DNA of 64,000 nt from an uncultured Planctomycetales bacterium (lineage in GTDB: Bacteria; Planctomycetota; Phycisphaerae; UBA1845; CAIVHJ01): NCBI GenBank assembly GCA_964619935.1, contig CAZUGO010000014.1, forward strand, positions 51,169 through 115,168, given 5' to 3'. The notes beneath the pieces are model-generated. The model did no database searches. It was given only the letters and a program-made list of their open reading frames with translations, and was not told where the DNA came from. This document shows positions 2,678 through 64,000 of the stretch, one piece after another (positions within the stretch are counted from its first letter, which is position 1; each line of letters begins with the position of its first letter). The translations under genes and the position numbers were made by a program.

Positions 2678-4021
2678 TCAGTCTTCCAGCAGCAGCCGAC
2701 CGGGCACCTCGAGATAACCCTTGATGTCGGACATGAAGCGCGCGGCGTCGGCGCCGTCGATGATCCGGTGATCAAACGACAGGTTCAGCGGCAACAGGTA
2801 GCGGGCCACGATGTCGCCGCCGCGAACCACCGGTTGCATTGCCGCCTTGCCCAGCCCCAGGATGGCCACCTCCGGGTAGTTGATGATCGGCGTCGACACG
2901 ATGCCACCGAGCGAACCGATGTTGGTGATGGTGAACGTCCCGCCGCGCAGTTCGTCAATCCCGAAACTGGGTGTGCGGGCCTTCTCGCCCAGGGCGGCGA
3001 GGGCCACCGCCAGGTCCCGGATCGATGTGCGATCGACGTCGCGCAGCACCGGCACCACCAGCCCGCGCGGGGTATCTACGGCGATGCCGAAGTGAAAGTA
3101 ATCCTTATAGATCATCTCGTTGTTGCTCTGATCGAAGCTGCCGTTAAACTGCGGATAGCGCCGCATGGCGGCGTGGATCGCCTTGATCACGAACGGCAGC
3201 AGCGTCAGTTTGGGGTCGGACTCCGCCCGGCGGGCATTGTGGTCCTTGCGCAACTGCTCCAACATCTCGATATCGGCCAGGTCGTGGTGGGTGACGTGGA
3301 CGTTGCTGGCCTCGGATCGAACCATCTGGTTGGCGATGGTCTTGCGGGTCTGGCTGATCGGCTCGCGGCGGATGGGGCCCCACTTGGTGAAGTCCGGCAG
3401 GTCGCTGCCCGCCGGCAGGGTCGCCGCCCGGGCCGCAGCGCCGGCCGCAGACGGCTGGGTGGCGGGGCGTGCCCCGCCGCCACCGGCGGCCTGCTCCAGG
3501 TCGTCGCGCGTGACCCGTCCCCCGGGCCCGCTGCCCGGGATGGCGGCCAGGTCGACTCCCAGCTCCTTGGCCCGCCGGCGGACCGCGGGCGAGGCCGCCA
3601 CTTTGGCGGGCCTTCCGGTGAGCGCCGCGGCCGGCTCAGGGCGCGGCGCCGCGCTCCTGGGCTCCGGGGCCGATTCTCCGGCCGCCGAGGCGGCTTCATT
3701 TTTCTTGGCGGCCGCCGTCGGCTTCCCGGCCCGGGCCGGCCGGTCGGATTCGCCGGTCTGGGGCTCCGCCGGCTCAGCGGCGGCCTGGTCCGAACCAAAA
3801 GAGACCATGACATCGCCAACATTGACGGTCTGGCCTTCGTGCACATGCACCTTGGTGACCTTGCCGGAGTGCGGCGACGGAATCTCGACGGCGGCCTTGT
3901 CGGTCTCGACCTCCATTAGCGGTTGGTCGGACTCGACGGTGTCGCCTTCCCGAATCAAGACCTGGATGATCTGGGCCTCATGAATCCCTTCGCCGAGATC
4001 GGGGAGTACAAAATCTACCAT
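2678..4021 (-). CDS. dihydrolipoamide acyltransferase (E2) of a 2-oxoacid dehydrogenase complex
   Basis: ORF 2678..4078, start trimmed to MVDFVLPDLGEGI. Lipoyl domain with VETDKAAVEIPSP, Ala/Pro-rich linker, subunit-binding domain SPAVRRRAKELGVDL, and catalytic SFDHRIIDGA motif. Confidence 0.92.
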   Translation of the reverse strand: MVDFVLPDLGEGIHEAQIIQVLIREGDTVESDQPLMEVETDKAAVEIPSPHSGKVTKVHVHEGQTVNVGDVMVSFGSDQAAAEPAEPQTGESDRPARAGKPTAAAKKNEAASAAGESAPEPRSAAPRPEPAAALTGRPAKVAASPAVRRRAKELGVDLAAIPGSGPGGRVTRDDLEQAAGGGGARPATQPSAAGAAARAATLPAGSDLPDFTKWGPIRREPISQTRKTIANQMVRSEASNVHVTHHDLADIEMLEQLRKDHNARRAESDPKLTLLPFVIKAIHAAMRRYPQFNGSFDQSNNEMIYKDYFHFGIAVDTPRGLVVPVLRDVDRTSIRDLAVALAALGEKARTPSFGIDELRGGTFTITNIGSLGGIVSTPIINYPEVAILGLGKAAMQPVVRGGDIVARYLLPLNLSFDHRIIDGADAARFMSDIKGYLEVPGRLLLED

Positions 4022-4074
4022 GACACTTGTCCTTGAGCGCGCCGGGCTCAGGCCCCGGCGGGCAGGTGCGCGGC

Positions 4075-5055
4075 TCAATAATCCAGCACCTGCCGGGCGG
4101 CGTTGACGATGCGCTCCGCATCCGGCAGGTAGATCTGCTCACACGCAAAGTATGGAAAGTGAATATCAGCGCTGGTCAGGCGCTTGACCGGGGCCTCCAG
4201 GTAACCGAACGCCTGCTCGTTGAGCCGGGCGATGACCTCGGCGGCAACCCCGCAGGTGCGGTTGCCTTCATTGATCACCAGGGCCCGCCCGGTCTTGGTC
4301 ACCGATTCGACGAGCGTGGCGGTGTCCATGGGCGAAACGGTTTGCAGGTCGATGACTTCGGCCTCGATGCCGTGGTCCTCGGCCAGGTCGTCGGCGGCTT
4401 CGAGCGTCGGCCGCATGCTGGCGCCGTACGAGATCAGGGTGACGTCGCCACCCTGCCGGACCACCGCCGCCTTGCCGAGTTCGAACGCTTCGGGTTCATC
4501 GGGAACGTCTTCCTTGAAGGCGCGGTACACCGCCTTCGGCTCGTAGAAGATCACCGGATCAGGATCCTGGATGGCGGCATGCAACAGCGCCCGGGCGTTT
4601 CGCGGACCCGACGGCACCACCACCTTCAGCCCTGGAATGTGGGCCCAGAAGGCCTCCTTGCTCTCGCTGTGATGTTCCACCGCCCGAATGCCCCCGCCGC
4701 AGGGAGCCCGCAGCACCATCGGCACGGTGAAGCGCCCGCGGGTGCGGTTGCGAAAGCGGGCCATGTGCTGCTCGATCTGGTGGAAGCCCTGGTAAATGAA
4801 CCCGGAGAACTGGATCTCGGTCACCGGGCGCAGCCCGTAGAGCGCCATCCCGATGCTGGTGCCGATGATGCCGGCTTCCGCCAGCGGTGAGTCCAGTATC
4901 CGGCGATCGCCGAAGCGCCCCAGCAGGCCTTCGGTGACCCGGAACACCCCTTCGTCCTGCCCGACATCCTGACCGCAGACCACCACGCGGTCGTCTGCTT
5001 CCATGTTCTGATGGAGCGCCAGGTTCAGCGCCTTGACCATTGTCATCTCGGCCAT
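4075..5055 (-). CDS. 2-oxoacid (pyruvate/branched-chain) dehydrogenase E1 beta subunit
   Basis: 326 aa with a typical E1-beta N-terminus, MAEMTMVKALNLALHQNMEADDRVVVCGQDVG. It sits between E1 alpha and E2. Confidence 0.92.
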   Translation of the reverse strand: MAEMTMVKALNLALHQNMEADDRVVVCGQDVGQDEGVFRVTEGLLGRFGDRRILDSPLAEAGIIGTSIGMALYGLRPVTEIQFSGFIYQGFHQIEQHMARFRNRTRGRFTVPMVLRAPCGGGIRAVEHHSESKEAFWAHIPGLKVVVPSGPRNARALLHAAIQDPDPVIFYEPKAVYRAFKEDVPDEPEAFELGKAAVVRQGGDVTLISYGASMRPTLEAADDLAEDHGIEAEVIDLQTVSPMDTATLVESVTKTGRALVINEGNRTCGVAAEVIARLNEQAFGYLEAPVKRLTSADIHFPYFACEQIYLPDAERIVNAARQVLDY

Positions 5056-6858: not shown

Positions 6859-7653
6859 CTACCAGGACGCATCGGGTTCGCACGCGTAGACCTCTGCCAG
6901 ATCGGACAGCACTTCAGCAAGCGCCGCGGTGTGTCGGCCGCTGCGGCCGGCCGGCGGAGGCGCGTCAATCATCGCCGGAACCACGAGCCCGCCCTCGACC
7001 AGCACCGCCGAGACTTGCTGAAACCAAGCGGCGCGCTGGGCGCGATCGTCTCCGGGGTACAGCCCGGCGGCCGCCAAATCCGGTTGACCGGCGACCGGCT
7101 CGAACAGTCCACCCGCGTGCGGCCATAGGACATCGACGGCCGCCTGAACCCGGGCTCTAGATTCGTCGGTGCCCTGCCCCAGCCGGACCATCCAGCCGTC
7201 GAAGTGGTCCTTGTGAAAGGTCACTTCCTGAATCATTTTCGCGGCCAGGTCGGCCAGCGGAGCAAAGCATGATTGCTGCAGACGGGGCAGACGCACGCCG
7301 TCGAAATGATCGAAGAAGAACTGCCGGGCGATGGCCAGCGCCCAGTCGTAGTCGTCGGCCAGCTCCACCAGGTTGGCGTGCCAGCGCTCGGCGGCCCCGC
7401 GGGTGTAGGCCAGACGATTGGCCTGGACCACGACATCGTCGCCTGGGCTGGTCAAACCGGCGGCGAGCTTGTACAGTTCCTGGGCATGGGCGATCTCGTC
7501 CTGGGCGATGTTGGAGAAGGCAATGTCCTCTTCCAAGAAGGGGCCCAGACCGGTCCAATCCCCATTGCGATGGCCCAGAATGAGCTTGTCGTCGGCAATC
7601 GACAACAACAAGCGCACCAAGGCCGGCCGCAGATTGTCGGGAATCTCAGTCAT
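6859..7653 (-). CDS. paaC: 1,2-phenylacetyl-CoA epoxidase subunit C-like (PaaC/PaaI family)
   Basis: 264 aa. LLLSIADDKLILGHRNGDWTGLGPFLEEDIAFSNIAQDEIAHAQELY matches the PaaC ferritin-like fold pattern. Lies directly upstream of paaD. Confidence 0.8.
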   Translation of the reverse strand: MTEIPDNLRPALVRLLLSIADDKLILGHRNGDWTGLGPFLEEDIAFSNIAQDEIAHAQELYKLAAGLTSPGDDVVVQANRLAYTRGAAERWHANLVELADDYDWALAIARQFFFDHFDGVRLPRLQQSCFAPLADLAAKMIQEVTFHKDHFDGWMVRLGQGTDESRARVQAAVDVLWPHAGGLFEPVAGQPDLAAAGLYPGDDRAQRAAWFQQVSAVLVEGGLVVPAMIDAPPPAGRSGRHTAALAEVLSDLAEVYACEPDASW

Positions 7654-7749: not shown

Positions 7750-8781
7750 GTGCCCGACGAACCGGCCTCAACTTCAGCGCCCGACGTCCTCACCGCTGAC
7801 GCATTCTGCGCGACCTGCGGCTACAGCCTGCGAACGCTCAGCCCCGCGGCCCGCTGCCCGGAGTGTGGCACGCCGGTCAGTGCCTCCGCGCCCACCGCCG
7901 AGGTCGAACCGGTGATCGACGGCATCAGCCCGGCCTCCCCAGGCACGGTTTGCTGTAACTGCCAGGCGGCGATCGAGGGCCGCCACCGCCATCAGTTCTG
8001 CCGCTCGTGCGGAACGCCCCTGTGGGCGACCATTCCGACGGTCTGGCTGCGGTGGTGCGATCCGCTTTGGCTGCAGCGGGTACGTTCGGCCATCACCTGG
8101 TGGCTGTGGACCCTGCTGATCAGCTTTGTGCTGGCATTCGGGGGAGGCGTGGTGGGCGTCATCTGGGGCGCCCGCGGCTCACCGATCTCGGCCCGGGGCT
8201 CGATGATCAGCATCGGCCTGACCAATGTCGTCATGCTGATCCTGCACCTGGTTGTGGTTTACCGACTGTCCACGCCACATCCGGGCAGCCGCATCCAGGA
8301 CACACCGACACTCCGCGGGATCACCCGCGGGTTCGCCCTTTATGCATTGCTGGCCGCCGCCGCGATGCAAGGGGTCCTGCTGGGCGGCGGATCCGCGCCG
8401 ACCATCACGGCGCTGTCCGTGCTGAGCACCCCGGCGCTGCTGTCCACCATCGGCGCCTTCCTGTATGTTCGCGGGCTGGCCTGTCGCATCCCCAACCGCA
8501 AACTGATCGAGCGCCTCACCCTTTTGATGTGGACCTACGGTTCGTTGATGGTCGCCATGCAGGCTTTGGGTCTGATCTCGCTGCAGGCCCTGGACCTCGA
8601 CGGCGGGATCGCGCCGGCCCCAAGTCTCGGACCGCAAATGCTGGTCGGTTGCGCATCCGGGGTCGTCGGGCTGGTGCTGTTGCTCTGCCAGGGCGCCCTG
8701 GCCGTCCTGCTGTTCACGCTGCGGCGGGTCGTGTTGCAGGCCACCCAATCCGCCCGCGCAGAATCGGAGTCGCGACCGTGA
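7750..8781 (+). CDS. polytopic membrane protein with two N-terminal zinc-ribbon motifs
   Basis: ORF 7273..8781. The part before 7654 is antisense to paaC, so I propose the GTG at 7750 as start (uncertain). Motifs CATCGYSL..CPECG and CCNCQ..CRSCG are followed by at least 6 hydrophobic helices. Confidence 0.55.
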   Translation: MPDEPASTSAPDVLTADAFCATCGYSLRTLSPAARCPECGTPVSASAPTAEVEPVIDGISPASPGTVCCNCQAAIEGRHRHQFCRSCGTPLWATIPTVWLRWCDPLWLQRVRSAITWWLWTLLISFVLAFGGGVVGVIWGARGSPISARGSMISIGLTNVVMLILHLVVVYRLSTPHPGSRIQDTPTLRGITRGFALYALLAAAAMQGVLLGGGSAPTITALSVLSTPALLSTIGAFLYVRGLACRIPNRKLIERLTLLMWTYGSLMVAMQALGLISLQALDLDGGIAPAPSLGPQMLVGCASGVVGLVLLLCQGALAVLLFTLRRVVLQATQSARAESESRP

Positions 8782-18079: not shown

Positions 18080-18523
18080 TCAGCGGTTCTTTCCGAGCAT
18101 TTCCAGCCGGCGCTCGGCTTCGCGTTTGCGCAGCGAGCGCACCGCGACCAAGGCGGCCAGTTGTTCTTTCCGGGGCTTGGTCTTGCCGCTCTCCCAGTTA
18201 TAGATGGTAATGGGATGCACGCCGACCAACTCGGCATAACGAGGAGCAGACAGCCCCAGCTTCTTGCGATGGGCTTTGAGCCAGGCCGGCGAGAACCGTG
18301 CGCCTTCCGCCAGTTCCTCGGGAGCCTTGTGGGCCACCCGCCTGCGCTCCTGGCTGCGCAGAAAGGACACGTCTTTCTCCAGTGCCGAGAGCTTGCGTTT
18401 GAGTTCGGCGATATCACGCCGATGTTGCGTGGCGGCCCGCTTGGTGGTGGTCACCTGGGCCTTGATCTGTTTTCGCGATATCCTGGCGATCTCGTCCTTC
18501 ATGACTTGGGCGAGGTTGGGCAT
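18080..18523 (-). CDS. XRE-type helix-turn-helix protein with N-terminal coiled coil
   Basis: ORF 18080..18544, start trimmed to MPNLAQVMKDE, preceded by AAGGAGG. HTH segment LSAPRYAELVGVHPITIYNWESGKTKP. Confidence 0.7.
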   Translation of the reverse strand: MPNLAQVMKDEIARISRKQIKAQVTTTKRAATQHRRDIAELKRKLSALEKDVSFLRSQERRRVAHKAPEELAEGARFSPAWLKAHRKKLGLSAPRYAELVGVHPITIYNWESGKTKPRKEQLAALVAVRSLRKREAERRLEMLGKNR

Positions 18524-18638
18524 GGTGAGCCTCCTTCTTGGCAATCACACCGCCCGACGGCGTGGCGTCGGGTTGGGCAGATGATCAGACAATCCTCCTG
18601 CAGCAGCGCGGTTCCGGCGTTCCGGCGGATCCGCTCAC

Positions 18639-19788: not shown

Positions 19789-20571
19789 TCACACTGGCTT
19801 ATCGCCATCCAGCGCCGCGATTTCGGAGGCCGCGACCGCCCGCGACTCAGCTTCCTGAATGGCATCGGCATAACGATCGGAACGCGGCACTCCGACGTCA
19901 AGCTTGATCCGCTTGCGAAGCTCGACTCTAAGTCCGCCGCTGCCAGCAAGTTCCGGAGGGATCACACAAACCACTTTTCTCGGAAATATCTGCAAGTACT
20001 GCTGAACACGGTGGTACGGCTCCGTTCCGTCCATTGCCGCAAGGAACACGCCCTCATCAACCCGCGCGCGATTGAACTTGAGGCGGTGGCCGATGAGTTC
20101 CAGTGCGCCGCCGGCCTGGTAGGCCCCATCCTGCCATTGATTCAATCCACCGATGAAACCTCGAACGGCATCGATCTGAGGATCAGCCGGTCGCGACTGG
20201 ACCTGGTCGCGGCTCAAACGGCCGCCGGCAGTCCGGACCTCTTCACGCAATTTGGGCGGAAACACCCACGAAACGGTCAAACGGACGTCCTCATCCAGAA
20301 TCCGCTCCGGCCGCTGATCGAAGACCCCTTTGAGCCCCAACCGAGAACGGCCCAACGGGCCCAATTCACACTCCCGCCCTTCCGCAGCACAGGCCACCAC
20401 CCAGGTCGCCGCCCGCTCCAACACCGCCAGGGCATCGGCCCGAGTCACGGTCGACGACCGCTCGGCAAACGCCAGAAAGGCGTCGAACCCAAGCGCCCCA
20501 GCAGTATGCAGCACCAGCCGATACCGCCCTCCGGCAATCACCGAAGGCACCGAACTCACCTTCACACTCAT
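19789..20571 (-). CDS. HU-like DNA-binding domain plus DUF4469 (Ig-like) protein
   Basis: ORF 19789..20703, start trimmed to MSVKVSS, preceded by GGAGGA. The N-terminal part resembles bacterial HU-CCDC81-type domains. C-terminal GGALELIGHRLKFNRARVDEGVFLAAMDGTE...VVCVIPPELAGSGGLRVELR fits the DUF4469 pattern. Assigned from memory of the family, not by search. Confidence 0.5.
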   Translation of the reverse strand: MSVKVSSVPSVIAGGRYRLVLHTAGALGFDAFLAFAERSSTVTRADALAVLERAATWVVACAAEGRECELGPLGRSRLGLKGVFDQRPERILDEDVRLTVSWVFPPKLREEVRTAGGRLSRDQVQSRPADPQIDAVRGFIGGLNQWQDGAYQAGGALELIGHRLKFNRARVDEGVFLAAMDGTEPYHRVQQYLQIFPRKVVCVIPPELAGSGGLRVELRKRIKLDVGVPRSDRYADAIQEAESRAVAASEIAALDGDKPV

Positions 20572-20806
20572 TCCGCAATCCTCCACAAGCCATTGGAGAC
20601 AAGACCACCAGAACCGCGAAGCCTTATACCTTATATATACCAAACTATCAAACATTGTGTTTGGCTTATGATTGGTTTCGATGTCCGATCTCCAAGAAAG
20701 CATATCACGTATTACTCCTTTAATTAGAACGAGTTACATCGCTACTTGCGCCTTCCTGGCCAGAAGGCCAGTCCCTGATTAAACACGCCGCTGAGATTCT
20801 TGCACC

Positions 20807-21070
20807 GTCGACCGGGTCGTTTCTCCAAGTCGACCGGGTCGTTCTGCCAAGTCGACCAGGTCGTTCTGCCAAGTCGACCAGGTCGTTCTGCCAAGTCGAC
20901 CAGGTCGTTCTGCCAAGTCGACCAGGTCGTTCTGCCAAGTCGACCAGGTCGTTCTGCCAGGTCGACCAGGTCGTTCTGCCAAGTCGACCAGGTCGTTTCG
21001 CCAGGTCGACCGGGTCGTTTTGCCAGGTCGACCGGGTCGTGTTGCCGGATCGACTGGGTCGGGTTAACAA
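20807..21070. repeat. 12 x 22-bp perfect-phase tandem repeat (consensus GTCGACCAGGTCGTTCTGCCAA)
   Basis: Units start at 20807 + 22n. Units 3-6 and 8 are identical and the edge units are degenerate. Each unit contains the palindrome CGACC-N-GGTCG. A 22-nt period is not a multiple of 3, so a coding repeat is unlikely. Confidence 0.95.
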
Positions 21071-21134: not shown

Positions 21135-21380
21135 TTACGGTCGGCAGCAGGCAATGGCTCCCAACCGAGTCAGATCTACAGGTAGAATCGGCGGGTCGCG
21201 ACCGGCAAGGGCCAGGAGGCGGCCGTCTGGTGAAAAAGCAATGGGCCCCGCAACGGATGTGTACCCAAGCCGGGCAACCCTTGCTGCCGGCTGCCGGGTG
21301 CCGGACCGCCAGATGATGTGTTCGGCCTCACGGGTGGCCAAGTCCTTGCCATCCGGGCTGAAACCGAAGTTCGCGCCTTT
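21135..21380 (-). pseudogene. WD40/beta-propeller repeat gene fragment
   Basis: Minus-frame translation gives ...ANFGFSPDGKDLATREAEHIIWRSG...VAGPIAFSPDGRLLALAGRDPPI. These are two FSPDG-type WD40-like blades with no plausible start and no N-terminal part. Confidence 0.45.
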
Positions 21381-21508
21381 TCTGCGGCGGACTGCGCTTC
21401 CAGCGCTTCCTCGCGGGCATCTTTTTTGCCGCCTTTCTTGGTCTCCAGGTTTGCCTTCTTCTTGGCGGCCTCCTTGTACTTCTCCCAGGCCTCCTTGACG
21501 GCCTGGTC

Positions 21509-22146
21509 ACAGGCCTCGCCGGGTCGCATGGCGGTCAGCATCTGCAACCGACACATCGCCGCAACGGGCGGCCGCATGAACGGCAGGGCGGCCGCGACGT
21601 CGTTTTCCGATGCGGGCTGTACGGGAGCGCGTTCAACGGCCAGGCTGCGACCCTTCCGCAGCGGTTCCAGCAGCTTCAACTCCGCAACGACGATGGCGGG
21701 TACAAGATTCTGCTGGGCGCCCCACTTGAACATCAAGATGAGCTAGTGCGGCAGACGCCGTCCGTGATCATCGTTTCCCGGACCGCCCGCAACTCGGCAC
21801 GGCCGAAGTCTGCAACCGGCATGGATCCATACAACGAGACCAACGGCCGCAGTGCAGAGCGGATCCAACTCAGCTCGCCGGTCGGCCGCCCGTCTTTGCG
21901 ATAGTAGACCGTGGCGTGATCCCAGTAGGCCGAGCACAGTTCCGTAATGATGTAGTCCGATGCGTGACGGCGGCGACGTGGGGCTCCGGTGGCGTGTTCG
22001 GCCAGGGCCCTGCGGTAAAGCTCCACACTCTCCGTGGTGCCGTATCTACCCAGGTAGATCCGCCGGCCTTCGATCTCGACGAACGCCCGGGCGGGTTTGC
22101 CCGCTGGCTGCTTGTGGCAACGGTATTTGGGAACTTTCTGAAACAT
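21509..22146 (-). pseudogene. tyrosine recombinase (phage-type integrase), frameshifted and C-terminally truncated
   Basis: 21733..22146 encodes an integrase N-terminal arm/SAM-like region (PKYRCHKQPAGKPARAFVEIEGRRIYLG...ITELCSAYWDHATVYYRKDGRPTGE). After a frameshift near 21736 the homology continues (FKWGAQQNLVP...LQMLTAMRPGEAC) and then stops. The rest of the catalytic domain is absent. It lies next to the 3' end of tRNA-Ala. Confidence 0.7.
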
Positions 22147-22269: not shown

Positions 22270-22342
22270 TGGAGCCAGAGGGACTCGAACCCTCGACCTC
22301 TTGCATGCCATGCAAGCGCGCTCCCAACTGCGCCATGGCCCC
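22270..22342 (-). tRNA. tRNA-Ala (anticodon GGC)
   Basis: Manual cloverleaf fold of GGGGCCA-TG-GCGC-AGTTGGGA-GCGC-G-CTTGC-ATGGCAT-GCAAG-AGGTC-GAGGG-TTCGAGT-CCCTC-TGGCTCC-A. U33 is present and the anticodon is GGC. The G3:U70 alanine identity pair is present. CCA is not encoded. Confidence 0.93.
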
Positions 22343-42060: not shown

Positions 42061-43836
42061 TTACTCGATCCAGTTCCCCTCGGCGTCAATGCGCAGGGTG
42101 CCGGTGTTCAGCCGAAACACCAGGATCGCCTCGCGCAACTCGGCCTGGGCCTGGGCATAGTCGTCGCGGGCATTGCGGAGATCATTCTGGGCTTCCACAA
42201 AGTCACGGTTCGAGATTAGGCCCTGCCGGAATTTGATCTCCGCCGACTCCCGCCGGATCTCGTTGCTCTCGATGTTCTGCTCCTGAATCCGCAGGCTGAA
42301 GCGCGCCTGTTCGATTCGCCGTTGGGCCCGCCGGACCTCCAGGCGGACCAGATCGACCTCCAGATCGTAGCGTCGCTGGGCCCGCTGCAGGCCGATGAGC
42401 GAGGAGCGGTAGGCGTTGCGCTCCGCTTTGCGATCCAGCGGAATTTCCAGATCGATCCCGGCCGTCCAGGTCTCGCGGTCCTCACGAAAATCCGCCGAGC
42501 TGAGGTGGTCGGGGTTGGTGTCGTAACGAACCTCGCCGCTGAAGTCCAGGTCGGGGAGCAGGTTGTTGCGGGCGATCTGGACGTTGCGCTTGGCATCGTC
42601 GACCGAGTCCAGAACGTTCAGCAGGTCCAACCGTGTCCTGACGGCCGTATCGATGGCCGTGACCTCATCGACCTGTAGCTGCATGAGGTCCAGACCCTCG
42701 TCGACCACATCGATTTGCTGGATGGTCGGCATTCCGATCAGAATCTTGAATTCGTCCAGCGCCGTGCCGTAGCTCTCGCGTGCCAACACCACGCGGTTGG
42801 CGGCCTGGAGGTAGTCGACCTGAGCCCGGTCGGCGTCGAGCATGATGAGCCGGTCGGCATCGGCGAGCGCCCGTGACCGACGCCAGTTCTCCAGGGAGCT
42901 CTCGCGGTTGGCCAGGGCGTTGCGGATGTTGCTCTTGAGATTCAACAGGTTGAAGTACCGGCTGGCGACCGCAGTGACGAAGGTTCGGCGAAACCGTTCG
43001 AACTGGCGGACGGCGTAAATCAAGTTGCGCTCGGACTGGTAGCGGGATTCGTACGCCACCCGTCCCGCGCCTCGGAGCAGCGGGATGTCCGCCTCGAGGA
43101 TCGCCGTTCCTGACTCAGAGTTGGTGACGTGATTCTCCAGGTCGCGGATCATGGTTCCGATCCACTGGGCCACAACCGTGCCGCCGTATGGCAGTCGCTG
43201 TTCGACGGCCACGTTCGCGGTGGCGGCCATGGCCCGGTCGGGATCGGAGTCCTTTGGAAACTCGGTGTAGGTGGCCTGCAGGTTGGACATGAATCGCGGC
43301 GTCCACAAAAAGCGCTCCAGCGACAACGCCAGGCCCTGAAGATAGAGATCCTCCTTGGCGTCCTGGTACTCGCGGGCATTGTGGAAGGCGTAGCCCAACA
43401 CCCGGGTCAAAGGCCAGGGCTCGCCTTCCGGTCCCGCCAGCGGCTCATCCAGGGCCTCGGCGGCCATCGGGCCGGCGGCGTCGTCCACCATCAGGGGGGG
43501 CCCCGCGGCGCCGTCCTCGGCTGGCGGCTCCGCGGCTTTGCGGAAGGCTTCGGGAACTTCCATGTCGGTGGGGTGGGGGACGAAGGAATACGGATCGGTC
43601 CGGTTGGCGACCGGCTGTTGGCTGAGCCGCACTTCGCTGGTCTGCCCGAGTGCCGCCATTTGACGCTGCTCGATCAGCCGGTAGACTTCACGGTCGGCCC
43701 GGGTCTCAAAACAGCCGACGGCCGCGGTCAGCACGGCGACGAAAAGCGTCAGCGTGCGGGTCGCCGAGCGGCGGTCTGGGTCTGCCGCGGTGCGTTGGGG
43801 TGGAAACATAACCCTCTGGCGTGTGGTACGGTTCAC
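42061..43836 (-). CDS. TolC-family outer-membrane efflux protein
   Basis: 591 aa with a duplicated alpha-helical/beta-barrel repeat pattern typical of OEP family proteins. First gene of the efflux cluster. Confidence 0.75.
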   Translation of the reverse strand: MNRTTRQRVMFPPQRTAADPDRRSATRTLTLFVAVLTAAVGCFETRADREVYRLIEQRQMAALGQTSEVRLSQQPVANRTDPYSFVPHPTDMEVPEAFRKAAEPPAEDGAAGPPLMVDDAAGPMAAEALDEPLAGPEGEPWPLTRVLGYAFHNAREYQDAKEDLYLQGLALSLERFLWTPRFMSNLQATYTEFPKDSDPDRAMAATANVAVEQRLPYGGTVVAQWIGTMIRDLENHVTNSESGTAILEADIPLLRGAGRVAYESRYQSERNLIYAVRQFERFRRTFVTAVASRYFNLLNLKSNIRNALANRESSLENWRRSRALADADRLIMLDADRAQVDYLQAANRVVLARESYGTALDEFKILIGMPTIQQIDVVDEGLDLMQLQVDEVTAIDTAVRTRLDLLNVLDSVDDAKRNVQIARNNLLPDLDFSGEVRYDTNPDHLSSADFREDRETWTAGIDLEIPLDRKAERNAYRSSLIGLQRAQRRYDLEVDLVRLEVRRAQRRIEQARFSLRIQEQNIESNEIRRESAEIKFRQGLISNRDFVEAQNDLRNARDDYAQAQAELREAILVFRLNTGTLRIDAEGNWIE

Positions 43837-55193: not shown

Positions 55194-56114
55194 ATGTCTG
55201 AGCTGCGCTACTCGATCGTGGACGCCTTCACCGCCGAACCGTTCAGCGGCAATCCCACCGCCGTGGTGCTGGAGGCCGGCGGGTTGACCGACGGCCGCCT
55301 GCAGACCATTGCCCGGGAGTTTAACGTCAGCGAAACGACCTTTGTCTCGGAACCCTCGGTTTCTGGAGCGGCAGTGGCCATCCGCTGGTTCACCCCGGCA
55401 GCCGAAGTGAACCTATGCGGCCACGGGACCATCGGGGCCGTTCACGCCCTGATCCGATCCGGACGGTTCGTGGACCTCCCGGACGACAAGGGAACGGTGC
55501 TGCCGATCCAAACCCGCAGCGGCATCCTGACCGTCCGCTGTGAGCGCTTGACGCGGTCCGGCGGCTCCACCTTCCTGGTGTGGTTGGATCTGCCCCAGCC
55601 CCAGCTTCGCCCCAAGACCATTGCCCCGCGGATCTGGGGTGGACTCTTAGGCGTGCCGGTCGATGCGTTTGATCGGGACCTGCCCAGCGCCCAGACCCAG
55701 GACGGAGACGTGCTGGTCTTCTTGCGGTCTTTGCCGCCACTGATGGAAGCAGCGCCGGATTTTCGAGCGCTGGCCAAGTTCAGTCGCCAGCAGAAGGTCC
55801 GCGGCTGGTGTGTCGCGACCACCGCCACCCTGACGCCGTCGATCAACGTGCAATCGCGCTTCTTTGCCCCGGCGATCGGCATCGATGAGGATCCGGTGAC
55901 CGGCAGTGTCCATGGCCCATTGGCCGCGTACCTCGTTGCTGCCGGGCGCGTCCCCCTGCACGGCCGGTCGGCCGCCCTGTCGTGCACCCAGTCGAATCAT
56001 CAAGCCCGAGCCGGGCTGGTCCGCGTGGTGGCGAACCAGACCGATTCAGCGAACTGGGCGGTCCGGATCGGCGGCGAATGCGTGACGGTGATGTCCGGGA
56101 CCCTTCACGTCTGA
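55194..56114 (+). CDS. PhzF-family isomerase
   Basis: YSIVDAFTAEPFSGNPTAVVL, FNVSETTFV and RWFTPAAEVNLCGHGTIGA. Confidence 0.85.
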   Translation: MSELRYSIVDAFTAEPFSGNPTAVVLEAGGLTDGRLQTIAREFNVSETTFVSEPSVSGAAVAIRWFTPAAEVNLCGHGTIGAVHALIRSGRFVDLPDDKGTVLPIQTRSGILTVRCERLTRSGGSTFLVWLDLPQPQLRPKTIAPRIWGGLLGVPVDAFDRDLPSAQTQDGDVLVFLRSLPPLMEAAPDFRALAKFSRQQKVRGWCVATTATLTPSINVQSRFFAPAIGIDEDPVTGSVHGPLAAYLVAAGRVPLHGRSAALSCTQSNHQARAGLVRVVANQTDSANWAVRIGGECVTVMSGTLHV

Positions 56115-56211
56115 ATGGAGCACGGCTCAGGATGGCCTGCGGTATGCCTGCCCGCCGGGGAGGGACTTCCCGGGTCCAGGGGGTGGACCCTGCGCCGGGG
56201 TGAGAGGCTCC

Positions 56212-56362
56212 AAAAATGGTATCTTCATTTTGTTGAAACGGTATCTTCATTTTACCCAAATGGTACCATCGTTTGAACAAAATGGTGGTACCATTTGAAC
56301 AAAATGGTGGTACCATTTGAATAAAACCGTGGTACCATTTGAATGGAACCGGAGTACCGTCC
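56212..56362. repeat. AT-rich array of 7 degenerate units of about 22 bp centred on TGGTACCA palindromes
   Basis: Site starts are 56217 and 56239 (GGTATC variants), 56261, 56286, 56308 and 56330 (perfect TGGTACCA), and 56352 (GAGTACCG). Spacings are 22, 22, 25, 22, 22, 22. The unit is close to AAAATGGTGGTACCATTTGAAC. It lies between two convergent stop codons. Confidence 0.9.
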
Positions 56363-56440
56363 AGCAAGAGGGCCGTCGGGGCGGCTGGACCCTGCCGGCG
56401 GGGCGGTGCCTGGCCCCGGCGGGTCGGGGAACTTCCCGAC

Positions 56441-57733
56441 TCAGCGTCGCCTTGGGGGCCGGAACTTGCTTCCCAGGGTCTTGCGTGGCTTGCTCATGGG
56501 CGCTTCCTCGGGTCCGCCGCCTGCGGTTTCGAACACGGCGCCCTGCAGCCGGGGGGCCCGCCTGGGGGCTTCGGGCGGCTTTTCTCGGGGTGCTGACGGC
56601 TCGAACTGGGGCACCACATGGGGCTCAACCTGCTTGTTGATCAACATCTCGACGGCGGTCAGCAGGGGGCCTTCCTCGCTGGTCACAAAAGTGATGGCCC
56701 GGCCAAAAGCGCCCATCCGGGCGGTGCGGCCGACCCGATGGACGTAGATCTGCGGATCCTTGGGGATATCGTAATTAATGATGTGACTGATGTCCTGGAC
56801 GTCAATCCCGCGGGCGGCCAGATCGGTCGCCACCAGGACTTTCAGCTTGTGGCGGCGGAAGCGGTCCATGACCCGCTCACGCTTGCTTTGCACCAGGTCG
56901 CCGTGGATCTCCTTAACGTCCAGACCCTGACCGTGGAGCTTCTTGGCCAGCTTGCGAGCGGCGTGCTTGGTGTTGGTGAACACAATGGCCAGACTGGGGT
57001 CTTCCCCCTGGATGAGCATCCACAGCAGGCGGTACTTGTCCCACGGTTCCACCGAGCAGTACACTTGGTGGATTTTCTCGACGGTCAAATCGTCCTGCGA
57101 GACGTTGACCTCCCGCGGTTGGTTCATGAACTGCTGGGCGAGCCGCTTGACATCCGAACTCAGGGTCGCGGACACGAAGATCGTCTGGTGGCGGTGCTTG
57201 ATTCGGCCCAGAACATTGCGGATGTCGTCGATGAACCCGATATCAAGCATGCGGTCCACTTCGTCAAGGACCACGTGCCGCAGCTCACCGATATCGATTA
57301 CCCGCCGATTCAGCAGATCCAGAATACGGCCGGGGGTGGCCACAATGATGTGCGTCCGCCGGCCGAGCAGCTTGATCTGGTGTTTCACCGCCTGACCGCC
57401 GTAGACCGGAACCGCCTGGAACACCGTGAAGCAGCTCAACCGCCGGATCTCAGCGGTCACCTGGACGGCCAGTTCACGCGTCGGAACCAGGACCAAGGCC
57501 TGCAGCGGCCTGGACTCGTCCAGTTGTTGCAGAATCGGCAGCGCGAAGGCCGCGGTCTTGCCCGTTCCGGTTCGAGCCTGGCCGAGCACGTCCAGACCTT
57601 CGATTGCCAGCGGAATCATCTCGCGCTGAATATCGGTCGGCGCCTCGAATCCTACCTTGTGCAAGGCCTGTAGCAGGGCCGGTTCGAGGCCCAGGGCAGC
57701 AAAGGCTTCGGGCAGATGTGGATGTGGTTTCAT
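56441..57733 (-). CDS. DEAD-box RNA helicase (motif II = DEVD)
   Basis: ARTGTGKTAAF (motif I), VLDEVDRML, SAT, HRVGRTAR, and a basic C-terminal tail. Confidence 0.92.
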   Translation of the reverse strand: MKPHPHLPEAFAALGLEPALLQALHKVGFEAPTDIQREMIPLAIEGLDVLGQARTGTGKTAAFALPILQQLDESRPLQALVLVPTRELAVQVTAEIRRLSCFTVFQAVPVYGGQAVKHQIKLLGRRTHIIVATPGRILDLLNRRVIDIGELRHVVLDEVDRMLDIGFIDDIRNVLGRIKHRHQTIFVSATLSSDVKRLAQQFMNQPREVNVSQDDLTVEKIHQVYCSVEPWDKYRLLWMLIQGEDPSLAIVFTNTKHAARKLAKKLHGQGLDVKEIHGDLVQSKRERVMDRFRRHKLKVLVATDLAARGIDVQDISHIINYDIPKDPQIYVHRVGRTARMGAFGRAITFVTSEEGPLLTAVEMLINKQVEPHVVPQFEPSAPREKPPEAPRRAPRLQGAVFETAGGGPEEAPMSKPRKTLGSKFRPPRRR

Positions 57734-63681: not shown

Positions 63682-64000
63682 GGCGCGTCCTTTGAAACTG
63701 ATGCCGCTGCGCTCGACACGGTATCCGATTTGCAGGCAGCTTCGTCGGGGGAACTTCCCGGCGGTCCGCGCAGCAGCCGTGTACCGAGCACAATACCAAC
63801 GGCGGGTCCACGCAGCGAGCCGCCCGAGTTCAGTGTGCGTGACGGGCCCCTCGATTGCCGCGGACCCTTGGGGTCCACGCCGGCGCGCTTTCGAGGGCGG
63901 GATTGCAGAAGGCCCGCACCGGCTGCCTTTTGCGTCCGAGTCGGGCCATGCTACAATCTCCGCCGTCGGGCAGCAGGTCAGGAGATGCCATTCGCCCGGG

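Follow-up and report, generated by a model that had tools for sequence, protein, structure and literature searches.

What kind of element is a block of evenly phased palindromes lying between the 3′ ends of two converging genes, and does it act on anything? The question is raised by a spacer in the 64-kb stretch of DNA analysed here, taken from contig CAZUGO010000014.1 of an uncultured Planctomycetales bacterium (hereafter, the window), where a PhzF-family gene meets the gene of a DEAD-box RNA helicase. The original prediction, made from the letters of this stretch, had placed a gap of 326 bp between the stops of the two genes (56114 and 56441), and these coordinates were verified. As a whole, the array in this gap is an imperfect palindrome of approximately 115 nt, centred on 56266 and built of three inverted and four direct units. 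With confidence a little short of even, we favour the reading that it is a lineage-specific, locally expanded, single-copy, non-coding palindromic minisatellite in a terminator-type convergent spacer, any effect of which would be structural. As to what the array is, it belongs to an already known kind of feature and has a unique sequence.

Anatomy of the array

The window is chromosomal DNA of a high-GC bacterium, with a mean GC of 0.649 (standard deviation, sd, 0.048; 150-bp windows over 64 kb), and its proteins were nearest to those of metagenome-assembled genomes (MAGs) of Phycisphaerae (Planctomycetota). The GC was 0.37 at 56200–56349, and the 150-bp window from 56201 was the minimum of the entire 64 kb (0.373, 5.7 sd under the mean), bearing out the claim that the gap contains about 150 bp of strikingly AT-rich DNA. 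Tandem Repeats Finder returned a period of 22 with 0% indels (scores of 73–123), and the autocorrelation at lag 22 was 0.74, compared with a background of about 0.25. In the register 56214 + 22k, each unit consists of a 6-bp left arm, a 5-bp centre, a 6-bp right arm and a 5-bp spacer, the first three forming a hairpin-prone dyad of 17 bp whose arms carry A- and T-tracts; the array presents 14 half-sites with an orientation alternating every 11 bp, and columns A2, A3, G6, C13 and T15 are invariant across the units (Table 1).

The original prediction had described seven phased sites. Seven units are indeed present, but they are not seven direct sites, the left three being inverted. When reverse-complemented, the 56280 unit agreed with the units at 56209, 56231 and 56253 at 15, 17 and 17 of 22 positions, respectively, while in direct orientation the left-arm units reached fewer than 14 of 22 to a right-hand unit in every register (12 of 22 by hand count for units 56214 and 56236 in the register 56214 + 22k). 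The right-arm units at 56258, 56280, 56302 and 56324 matched the 56280 unit at 17, 22, 21 and 18 of 22 positions, in this order, and Tandem Repeats Finder gave 94% matches and 0 indels for this arm. The mapping of left to right units set the symmetry centre at 56266, with 39 of 57 positions complementary between 56209–56265 and 56267–56323; inverted-repeat arms of the array were also called at 47–61 nt, with 74–77% complementarity. The flip also bears on the proposed spacing of 22, 22, 25, 22, 22 and 22 bp, of which the 22-bp period was retained. The step of 25 is not an indel, since all seven units lie exactly 22 bp apart; it appeared because the TGGTACCA cores had been counted across the change of orientation.

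Four perfect palindromic cores had been reported, and four exact TGGTACCA sites were detected in the window, all of them in the array (0.22 expected; a count of 4 was reached by 1 of 100 shuffles). The degenerate dyad AAAYSG-N5-YCRTTT occurred at six sites in the array and nowhere else in the window (0.11 expected; 0 of 100 shuffles). The extension of the cores to AAATGGTACCATTT had to be abandoned, as this sequence never occurs exactly (best match AAATGGTACCATCG, two mismatches), and the second of the two units given as TGGTATCTTCATTTT actually reads CGGTATCTTCATTTT.

The similarity between units declines to both outer edges. Within the right arm, units 56280 and 56302 shared 21 of 22 positions and units 56302 and 56324 shared 19 of 22, and the rightmost unit of the array has decayed towards genomic GC. 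Such a gradient (21/22 for inner units, 8–11/22 at the edge) is typical of arrays homogenised by unequal exchange.

Copy number, relatives and the favoured reading

The array motif is single-copy within the window. The genome and metagenome collections were scanned with the pattern GGTACCATTTGAA-N8-12-GGTACCA. This unit-pair pattern gave three unrelated matches in 185,579 representative genomes and eight matches in the metagenome collection, none of them a credible homologue, both counts being about the chance expectation; neither scan returned the source contig, and they have no bearing on copy number within this genome. In viral contigs, the loose two-core pattern gave noise only and the specific patterns gave no match, and blastn against plasmids and phages yielded no match. 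Literature searches on TGGTACCA or GGTACCATTT returned titles without an evident operator link, which we assumed to be KpnI cloning-primer matches. A search for further copies of the unit or of the whole element, which the original prediction had called for, therefore ended with one copy in 64 kb and no homologue in the genome, metagenome, viral, phage and plasmid collections, and the array is an orphan sequence with respect to every collection searched. A 116.8-kb contig carrying both flanking genes and a Logan contig cross the array unbroken. Logan is a k = 31 graph assembly, in which shared 31-mers break contigs; the continuity of the two contigs is indirect evidence against other copies with shared 31-mers.

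Some of the scan matches were arrays of another kind. The match in L012 (5158–6016) is a satellite of 34 × 25 bp beside microsatellites, with almost no open reading frames (ORFs) and a eukaryote-type look, and in L011 (469–620 and 852–1003) a 21-bp array lies within a tandem repeat of 383 bp, again eukaryote-like in our reading. In L016 (3623–3715), a contig of 33% GC, four direct GTGGTACCAT units lie upstream of, and abut, a DDE transposase gene (IS240/IS66-like, SWIM), with no inverted unit set at the other end. In L014, two units form a promoter-like site, and other matches were isolated pairs. The arrays of L011, L012 and L016 (periods of 21–25 bp) have a common core, GTGGTACCATTTGA, including a 5′ GT not required by the pattern; the shared GT is probably a coincidence.

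The Logan contig L004 (SRR10083321) is identical to the window over 361 nt, spacer included. All remaining relatives are far more diverged: among non-self proteins, the best PhzF is 68% and the best helicase 71% identical. In L139, the same convergent helicase and PhzF pair was found (70% and 63% protein identity, respectively), with a spacer of only 75 bp, in which a T/C-rich tail comes after a compact hairpin (−17.3 kcal/mol, z −3.3). The array was also absent from nine further related loci, including L008, which has two extra genes between phzF and the helicase gene, and L005–L007 and L140–L143, in which the neighbouring genes differ. Because L139 has the same gene pair with a short, array-less spacer, the array is, as judged from this comparison, a lineage-specific addition, and so is the greater part of the 326-bp spacer. 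The proposal of an insertion or duplication event is upheld by the short L139 spacer with its simple hairpin and by the flanking genes, which retain their full length in the window (306 and 430 aa, lengths as in homologues).

Two features of the related loci were observed in passing. In L005, a contig of a Phycisphaerae-like MAG (GCA_044345325.1), a hairpin at 7011–7090 with 36-nt arms, 94% complementary and composed of heptad repeats (TTCGTRR × 5 and their complement), lies exactly where the genes of dihydroorotate dehydrogenase and dihydroorotase converge and overlaps both gene ends; by analogy, it may be a comparable object in a relative, at another convergent junction. Downstream of the helicase gene in L141 (4270–4310), TGGAGCCAGAGGGACTCGAACCCTCGACC resembles the 3′ end of an opposite-strand tRNA gene.

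Under the minisatellite reading, the convergent phzF–helicase spacer was probably once short. An AT-rich dyad would have arisen in the shared 3′ end of the two genes, the only setting in which A/T tracts and hairpins are normal in a 65% GC genome, and would have been amplified by slipped-strand mispairing or unequal exchange, together with one inverted duplication of units; amplification of this kind would explain the near-identical inner units and the decayed edge. There would be no dedicated trans-acting partner, and the effect of the array, if any, would be structural. It would be the most easily melted block of the region, prone to cruciforms and hairpins, and a transcript entering it from either gene would be expected to fold into a long AU-rich hairpin. 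The array could in this way buffer the two converging units against each other, physically as well as transcriptionally. Bacterial genomes do contain non-coding satellites, of which the planctomycete Rhodopirellula baltica has 29 (4.06 per Mb); such satellites have been attributed to replication errors (Subirana & Messeguer 2019, PMC6749651). Prokaryotic non-coding satellites, or variable-number tandem repeats, resemble the array in their short, head-to-tail, non-coding intergenic units and species-unique sequence (PMC6749651), as well as in near-identical inner units (here, those of the right arm) and an outermost unit that has decayed, a pattern attributed to slippage. Unlike them, the array has dyad-symmetric units, half of which are inverted so that the whole is a palindrome, and its GC is extremely low for the genome.

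Several observations weigh against a minisatellite. The GC deficit of 5.7 sd, together with units diverged by up to approximately 30%, could mean, instead of neutral drift, long-term constraint or a foreign origin. Conservation falls on the symmetric arms (AAA..G / C.TTT), as for the contacts of a dimeric protein, a pattern that, with seven related units, is statistically inseparable from shared ancestry. The second, unrelated array of 22-bp period at a distance of 35 kb hints that such arrays may be more than accidents in this genome. Finally, the spacer holds no canonical terminator and the unit hairpins are weak, which leaves the role as a transcriptional buffer an inference only.

Table 1. 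Features of the phzF–helicase spacer and its two flanking genes (window coordinates)
Feature	Coordinates	Strand	Description
PhzF-family isomerase gene, left convergent neighbour	55194..56114	+	306 aa; Pfam PF02567, E 1.8e-62; GC at third codon positions (GC3) 0.81
Left GC-rich flank	56115..56208	.	contains hairpin GGGTCCA-GGGGG-TGGACCC (56172-56190) and repeats 56162-56172 and 56184-56200
Left arm, three 22-bp units (56209, 56231, 56253)	56209..56274	-	inverted relative to right arm
Whole array, strict 22-bp register	56214..56367	.	seven 17-bp dyads AAAyGG-N5-yCrTTT, each with a 5-bp spacer
Unit 56214			left arm AAATGG, centre TATCT, right arm TCATTT, spacer TGTTG
Unit 56236			left arm AAACGG, centre TATCT, right arm TCATTT, spacer TACCC
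Unit 56258			left arm AAATGG, centre TACCA, right arm TCGTTT, spacer GAACA
Unit 56280			left arm AAATGG, centre TGGTA, right arm CCATTT, spacer GAACA
Unit 56302			left arm AAATGG, centre TGGTA, right arm CCATTT, spacer GAATA
Unit 56324			left arm AAACCG, centre TGGTA, right arm CCATTT, spacer GAATG
Unit 56346			left arm GAACCG, centre GAGTA, right arm CCGTCC, spacer AGCAA
Sigma-70-like promoter match in array	56249..56277	-	TTCAAA-17-TAAAAT; 9/12 positions, 0.1 expected; consensus match only
Right arm, four 22-bp units (56258, 56280, 56302, 56324)	56258..56345	+	consensus AAATGGTGGTACCATTTGAACA
Central perfect palindrome	56260..56269	.	ATGGTACCAT; overlap of innermost left (56253-56274) and right (56258-56279) units
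Degenerate edge unit	56346..56367	+	GAACCGGAGTACCGTCCAGCAA; in register; GC 0.59; 8-11/22 identical to other units
Right-flank hairpin	~56359-56390		arms GTCCAGC / GCTGGAC
Right GC-rich flank	56368..56440	.	contains repeats 56386-56403 and 56427-56437
Hairpin directly after helicase stop	56423-56440		
DEAD-box RNA helicase gene, right convergent neighbour	56441..57733	-	430 aa; Pfam PF00270 and PF00271; homologues 428-435 aa

Other readings of the array

The chief rival, less probable than a minisatellite but still live, is that the array is a platform for cooperative protein binding in the manner of iterons or of type Ia/II partition centromeres, with its 14 half-sites on one helix face. A dimeric or dimer-of-dimers protein encoded elsewhere would coat the half-sites, and the nucleoprotein block so formed could work as a roadblock or insulator, as a site of titration or as one that organises the chromosome. 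The dyad units, their exact 22-bp phase (about two helical turns) and the conservation of the symmetric arms are consistent with this, as are the persistence of AT-rich DNA in a 65% GC genome and the presence, in the same window, of a second 22-bp array of dyad units (CGACC-A-GGTCG) adjoining an HU-HIG DNA-binding gene. However, tandem duplication by itself yields phased units with similar arms, the edge units are decaying, there is no further site in the 64 kb, no homologous array was found in the collections searched, and the array is missing from the orthologous spacer of L139. The genes of the window also speak against a platform. The near neighbours of the array encode PhzF, the DEAD-box helicase, IMPDH, GMP synthase, a GT9-like protein and histidine ammonia-lyase, and the wider context is one of housekeeping functions (urocanase, riboflavin and thiamine synthesis, and a pyruvate/2-oxoacid dehydrogenase complex), with dnaE further upstream. 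Pfam scans, which did not cover every ORF of the window, detected no rep, par, integrase or transposase gene, no member of the ParA, ParB, ParM or ParR families and no regulator adjacent to the array; the only helix-turn-helix or HU-type genes in these scans lie at least 35 kb from it, among them genes for an XRE-type helix-turn-helix protein (18080–18544) and the HU-HIG protein.

Iterons of plasmid and phage origins are 22 bp long in R6K and pPS10, and dyad-symmetric in ori-lambda. They resemble the array in their units of 17–22 bp, helical phase, several copies and AT-rich setting, and some share its dyad symmetry. Unlike iterons, three units of the array are inverted, and the scans of window ORFs revealed no initiator (Rep) gene; unlike iteron origins, the array lacks a DnaA-box cluster, a local turn of GC skew and similarity to plasmid or phage records. 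Partition centromeres, such as sopC of F and parC of R1/pB171 and of pSK41, consist of tandem inverted- or half-repeat units with a pitch of approximately 10–11 bp, bound cooperatively on one helix face. The likeness lies in the tandem, dyad-containing repeats. The difference is that no parA/parB or parM/parR pair is adjacent to the array (none in the ORFs scanned), and its context is chromosomal and housekeeping.

Several more specific functions were considered and rejected. For DnaA boxes or oriC, TTATCCACA with up to one mismatch gave 3 matches compared with 4.0 expected, none near the array; no GC-skew turning point was found at the array, the cumulative skew climbing steadily through 56 kb. 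The motif TACCACC, which bears a resemblance to the Thermotoga 12-mer DnaA box, was set aside since the GC skew does not turn here. A presumed resemblance to GntR/FadR-type operators was rejected because no GntR-family gene was found among the window ORFs scanned with Pfam. Restriction-site avoidance was rejected, as GGTACC is not depleted in the window (15 observed, 12.6 expected), and a CRISPR array was not indicated, since the units abut with no unique spacers between repeats. A coding array was rejected as well: the 22-bp period is not a multiple of 3 and the small ORFs of the island carry no coding signal, their GC being flat over codon positions compared with a GC3 of about 0.8 in real genes.

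We regard it as improbable that the array acts as RNA, either as a bidirectional 3′-end element whose long AU-rich hairpin would give termination or 3′-end protection, or as the source of a small or antisense RNA that begins within it. Its position would suit such a role, as it lies between convergent genes at a place where L139 carries a hairpin with a T-rich tail, and the terminator scan identified no other termination signal in the spacer. In addition, the minus strand of the array has one promoter-like match (Table 1), which reads towards the 3′ end of phzF. The fold was strong on both strands (z −6.8 and −6.4 for the whole spacer against shuffles; −5.7 for the array folded as DNA), a result expected of any palindrome. 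The idea of serial RNA hairpins was sustained only as one long global hairpin (z −5.7 to −6.8). The single-unit hairpins are weak (−1 to −4.7 kcal/mol, not better than shuffles), with the U-runs consumed inside the stems and no U-tract after them. No Rfam family reached threshold in the array region, the best being MIR5070 (36.5 bits, threshold 100), and the sub-threshold matches were generic plant and animal miRNA-hairpin models; in the whole window, the scan at the gathering threshold returned tRNA-Ala only. Bidirectional intrinsic terminators share with the array the convergent position and symmetric motifs of A-tract, stem and T-tract readable on both strands, but the stems of the array are AT-rich and weak, with the U-tracts inside them, and the terminator scan called no canonical intrinsic terminator in 56115–56440.

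Somewhat less probable still is a mobile origin, in which the array would be a miniature inverted-repeat transposable element (MITE), a relic of a mobile element or the footprint of an attachment (att) site, that is, an AT-rich foreign element with long, imperfect terminal inverted repeats composed of subterminal repeats, and with a target duplication. The array is small, AT-rich, imperfectly palindromic and absent from the orthologous spacer, and repeats are present in the flanks. The original prediction had these repeats bracketing the island; all four were found at their predicted coordinates, yet as evidence they are weak, being near chance for GC-rich sequence. Aligned locally in direct orientation, the flanks agreed best between 56139–56172 and 56403–56438, a result that 8 of 1000 dinucleotide shuffles also reached, and the best inverted alignment between the flanks was not significant. 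Moreover, 10–15-mers of the GC-rich flanks recur widely in the window (TGGACCCTGC at 8107, GACCCTGCCGGCGGG at 3408 and GGGGAACTTCCCG at 63748). The repeats were rejected as a target-site duplication or att footprint because they lie 13–27 bp off the array, stand in mirrored order although direct in orientation, and are built of k-mers common in the window; no target-site duplication abuts the ends of the array. When terminal inverted repeats were sought, the arms were 68–77% complementary and the boundaries of an element were not definable. The array is single-copy in 64 kb and crossed by unbroken contigs, the Logan contig among them, no transposase or integrase gene was found nearby among the window ORFs scanned, and there was no phage, plasmid or viral match. 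Taken together, these results do not support the MITE-like or att-like footprint that had been proposed.

Among known elements, the ERIC/IRU, Correia, other MITE and REP/BIME families resemble the array as imperfect palindromes of approximately 115–135 nt in transcribed or 3′ intergenic positions, often between convergent genes. Unlike the array, these families are multi-copy by definition, whereas the array is single-copy in 64 kb and has an internal 22-bp period. REP/BIME elements are defined as palindromes of 20–40 bp with conserved GTAG/CGTC heads and a high copy number (PMC3733652); the array has no such heads and occupies a single locus in the window.

The hairpins of the flanks were not more stable than those of shuffled sequences (z −1.1 for the left-flank hairpin at 56172–56190; −0.7 to −1.6 for those of the right flank). 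As a separate observation, the near-palindromic 13-mer GGGGAACTTCCCG occurs exactly at 56426–56438 and at 63748–63760, the latter upstream of a DUF2238 gene, and related sites lie at 56162–56172 and, with one mismatch, at 43552; GGGAACTTCCC with up to one mismatch gave 5 matches compared with 1.35 expected (1 of 100 shuffles). GGGGAACTTCCCG and GGGAACTTCCC may represent a short genomic motif unrelated to the array.

An assembly artefact (a palindrome of chimeric origin, or a repeat that was collapsed or expanded) is hardly credible: palindromic tandem repeats are hard for short-read assemblers and both array-bearing assemblies may share the same reads, but the window and L004 are identical over 361 nt, the longest exact repeat in the array is 28 nt by reading, shorter than the Logan k of 31, so that the unit number should be resolvable, and the flanking genes are intact and syntenic with relatives.

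The second 22-bp array and its possible wider meaning

A second array of 22-bp period is located at 20807–21040 of the window. Its GC-rich unit, GTCGACCAGGTCGTTCTGCCAA, is unrelated to that of the phzF–helicase spacer and is present in 10.6 copies with 95% matches, each unit containing the dyad CGACC-A-GGTCG; no match was found in viral contigs. The array adjoins the only other low-GC island of the window (20600–20790, GC 0.39–0.44) and is abutted by a gene of DNA-binding type (HU-HIG/DUF4469; 19789–20703, minus strand), the GC3 of which is 0.65 compared with about 0.8. Beyond this gene lie two ORFs without a Pfam match and then tRNA-Ala(GGC) (21176–22146 and 22270–22342, both minus strand). 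The HU-HIG region could be a small integrated island, with the second array as its candidate binding array. The cumulative GC skew has a sharp minimum at approximately 20.8 kb (−4.26) and then rises to +2.3 by 64 kb, which could mark a replication origin or just a change of gene orientation; no DnaA-box cluster was found anywhere in the window. Elsewhere in the window, a 19-bp unit occurs twice at 3394–3430 (GC 0.77–0.84), within the lipoyl/E3-binding linker of a 2-oxoacid dehydrogenase E2 gene (2678–4078, minus strand), and is probably a low-complexity repeat of a coding linker.

The second 22-bp array beside a DNA-binding gene is the one thing that could raise the interest of the array in the phzF–helicase spacer. 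In this Phycisphaerae lineage, 22-bp-phased dyad arrays might form a set of cooperative docking sites for an uncharacterised DNA-binding protein; with no par or rep genes adjacent, the set could make up a non-canonical system near the skew minimum that serves as a centromere, in titration or in organising the chromosome, a conjecture to which we attach little probability.

To our knowledge, hardly any work in Planctomycetota has dealt with how chromosomes are organised and segregated or with termination signals. If the array is only a minisatellite, it would be a clean case of AT-rich, hairpin-prone seeds in high-GC convergent spacers growing into palindromic arrays, and it could serve as a marker for strain typing. 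If, instead, the reading as a protein-binding platform were true, the array would be a sign that Planctomycetota have a DNA-binding system not yet known.

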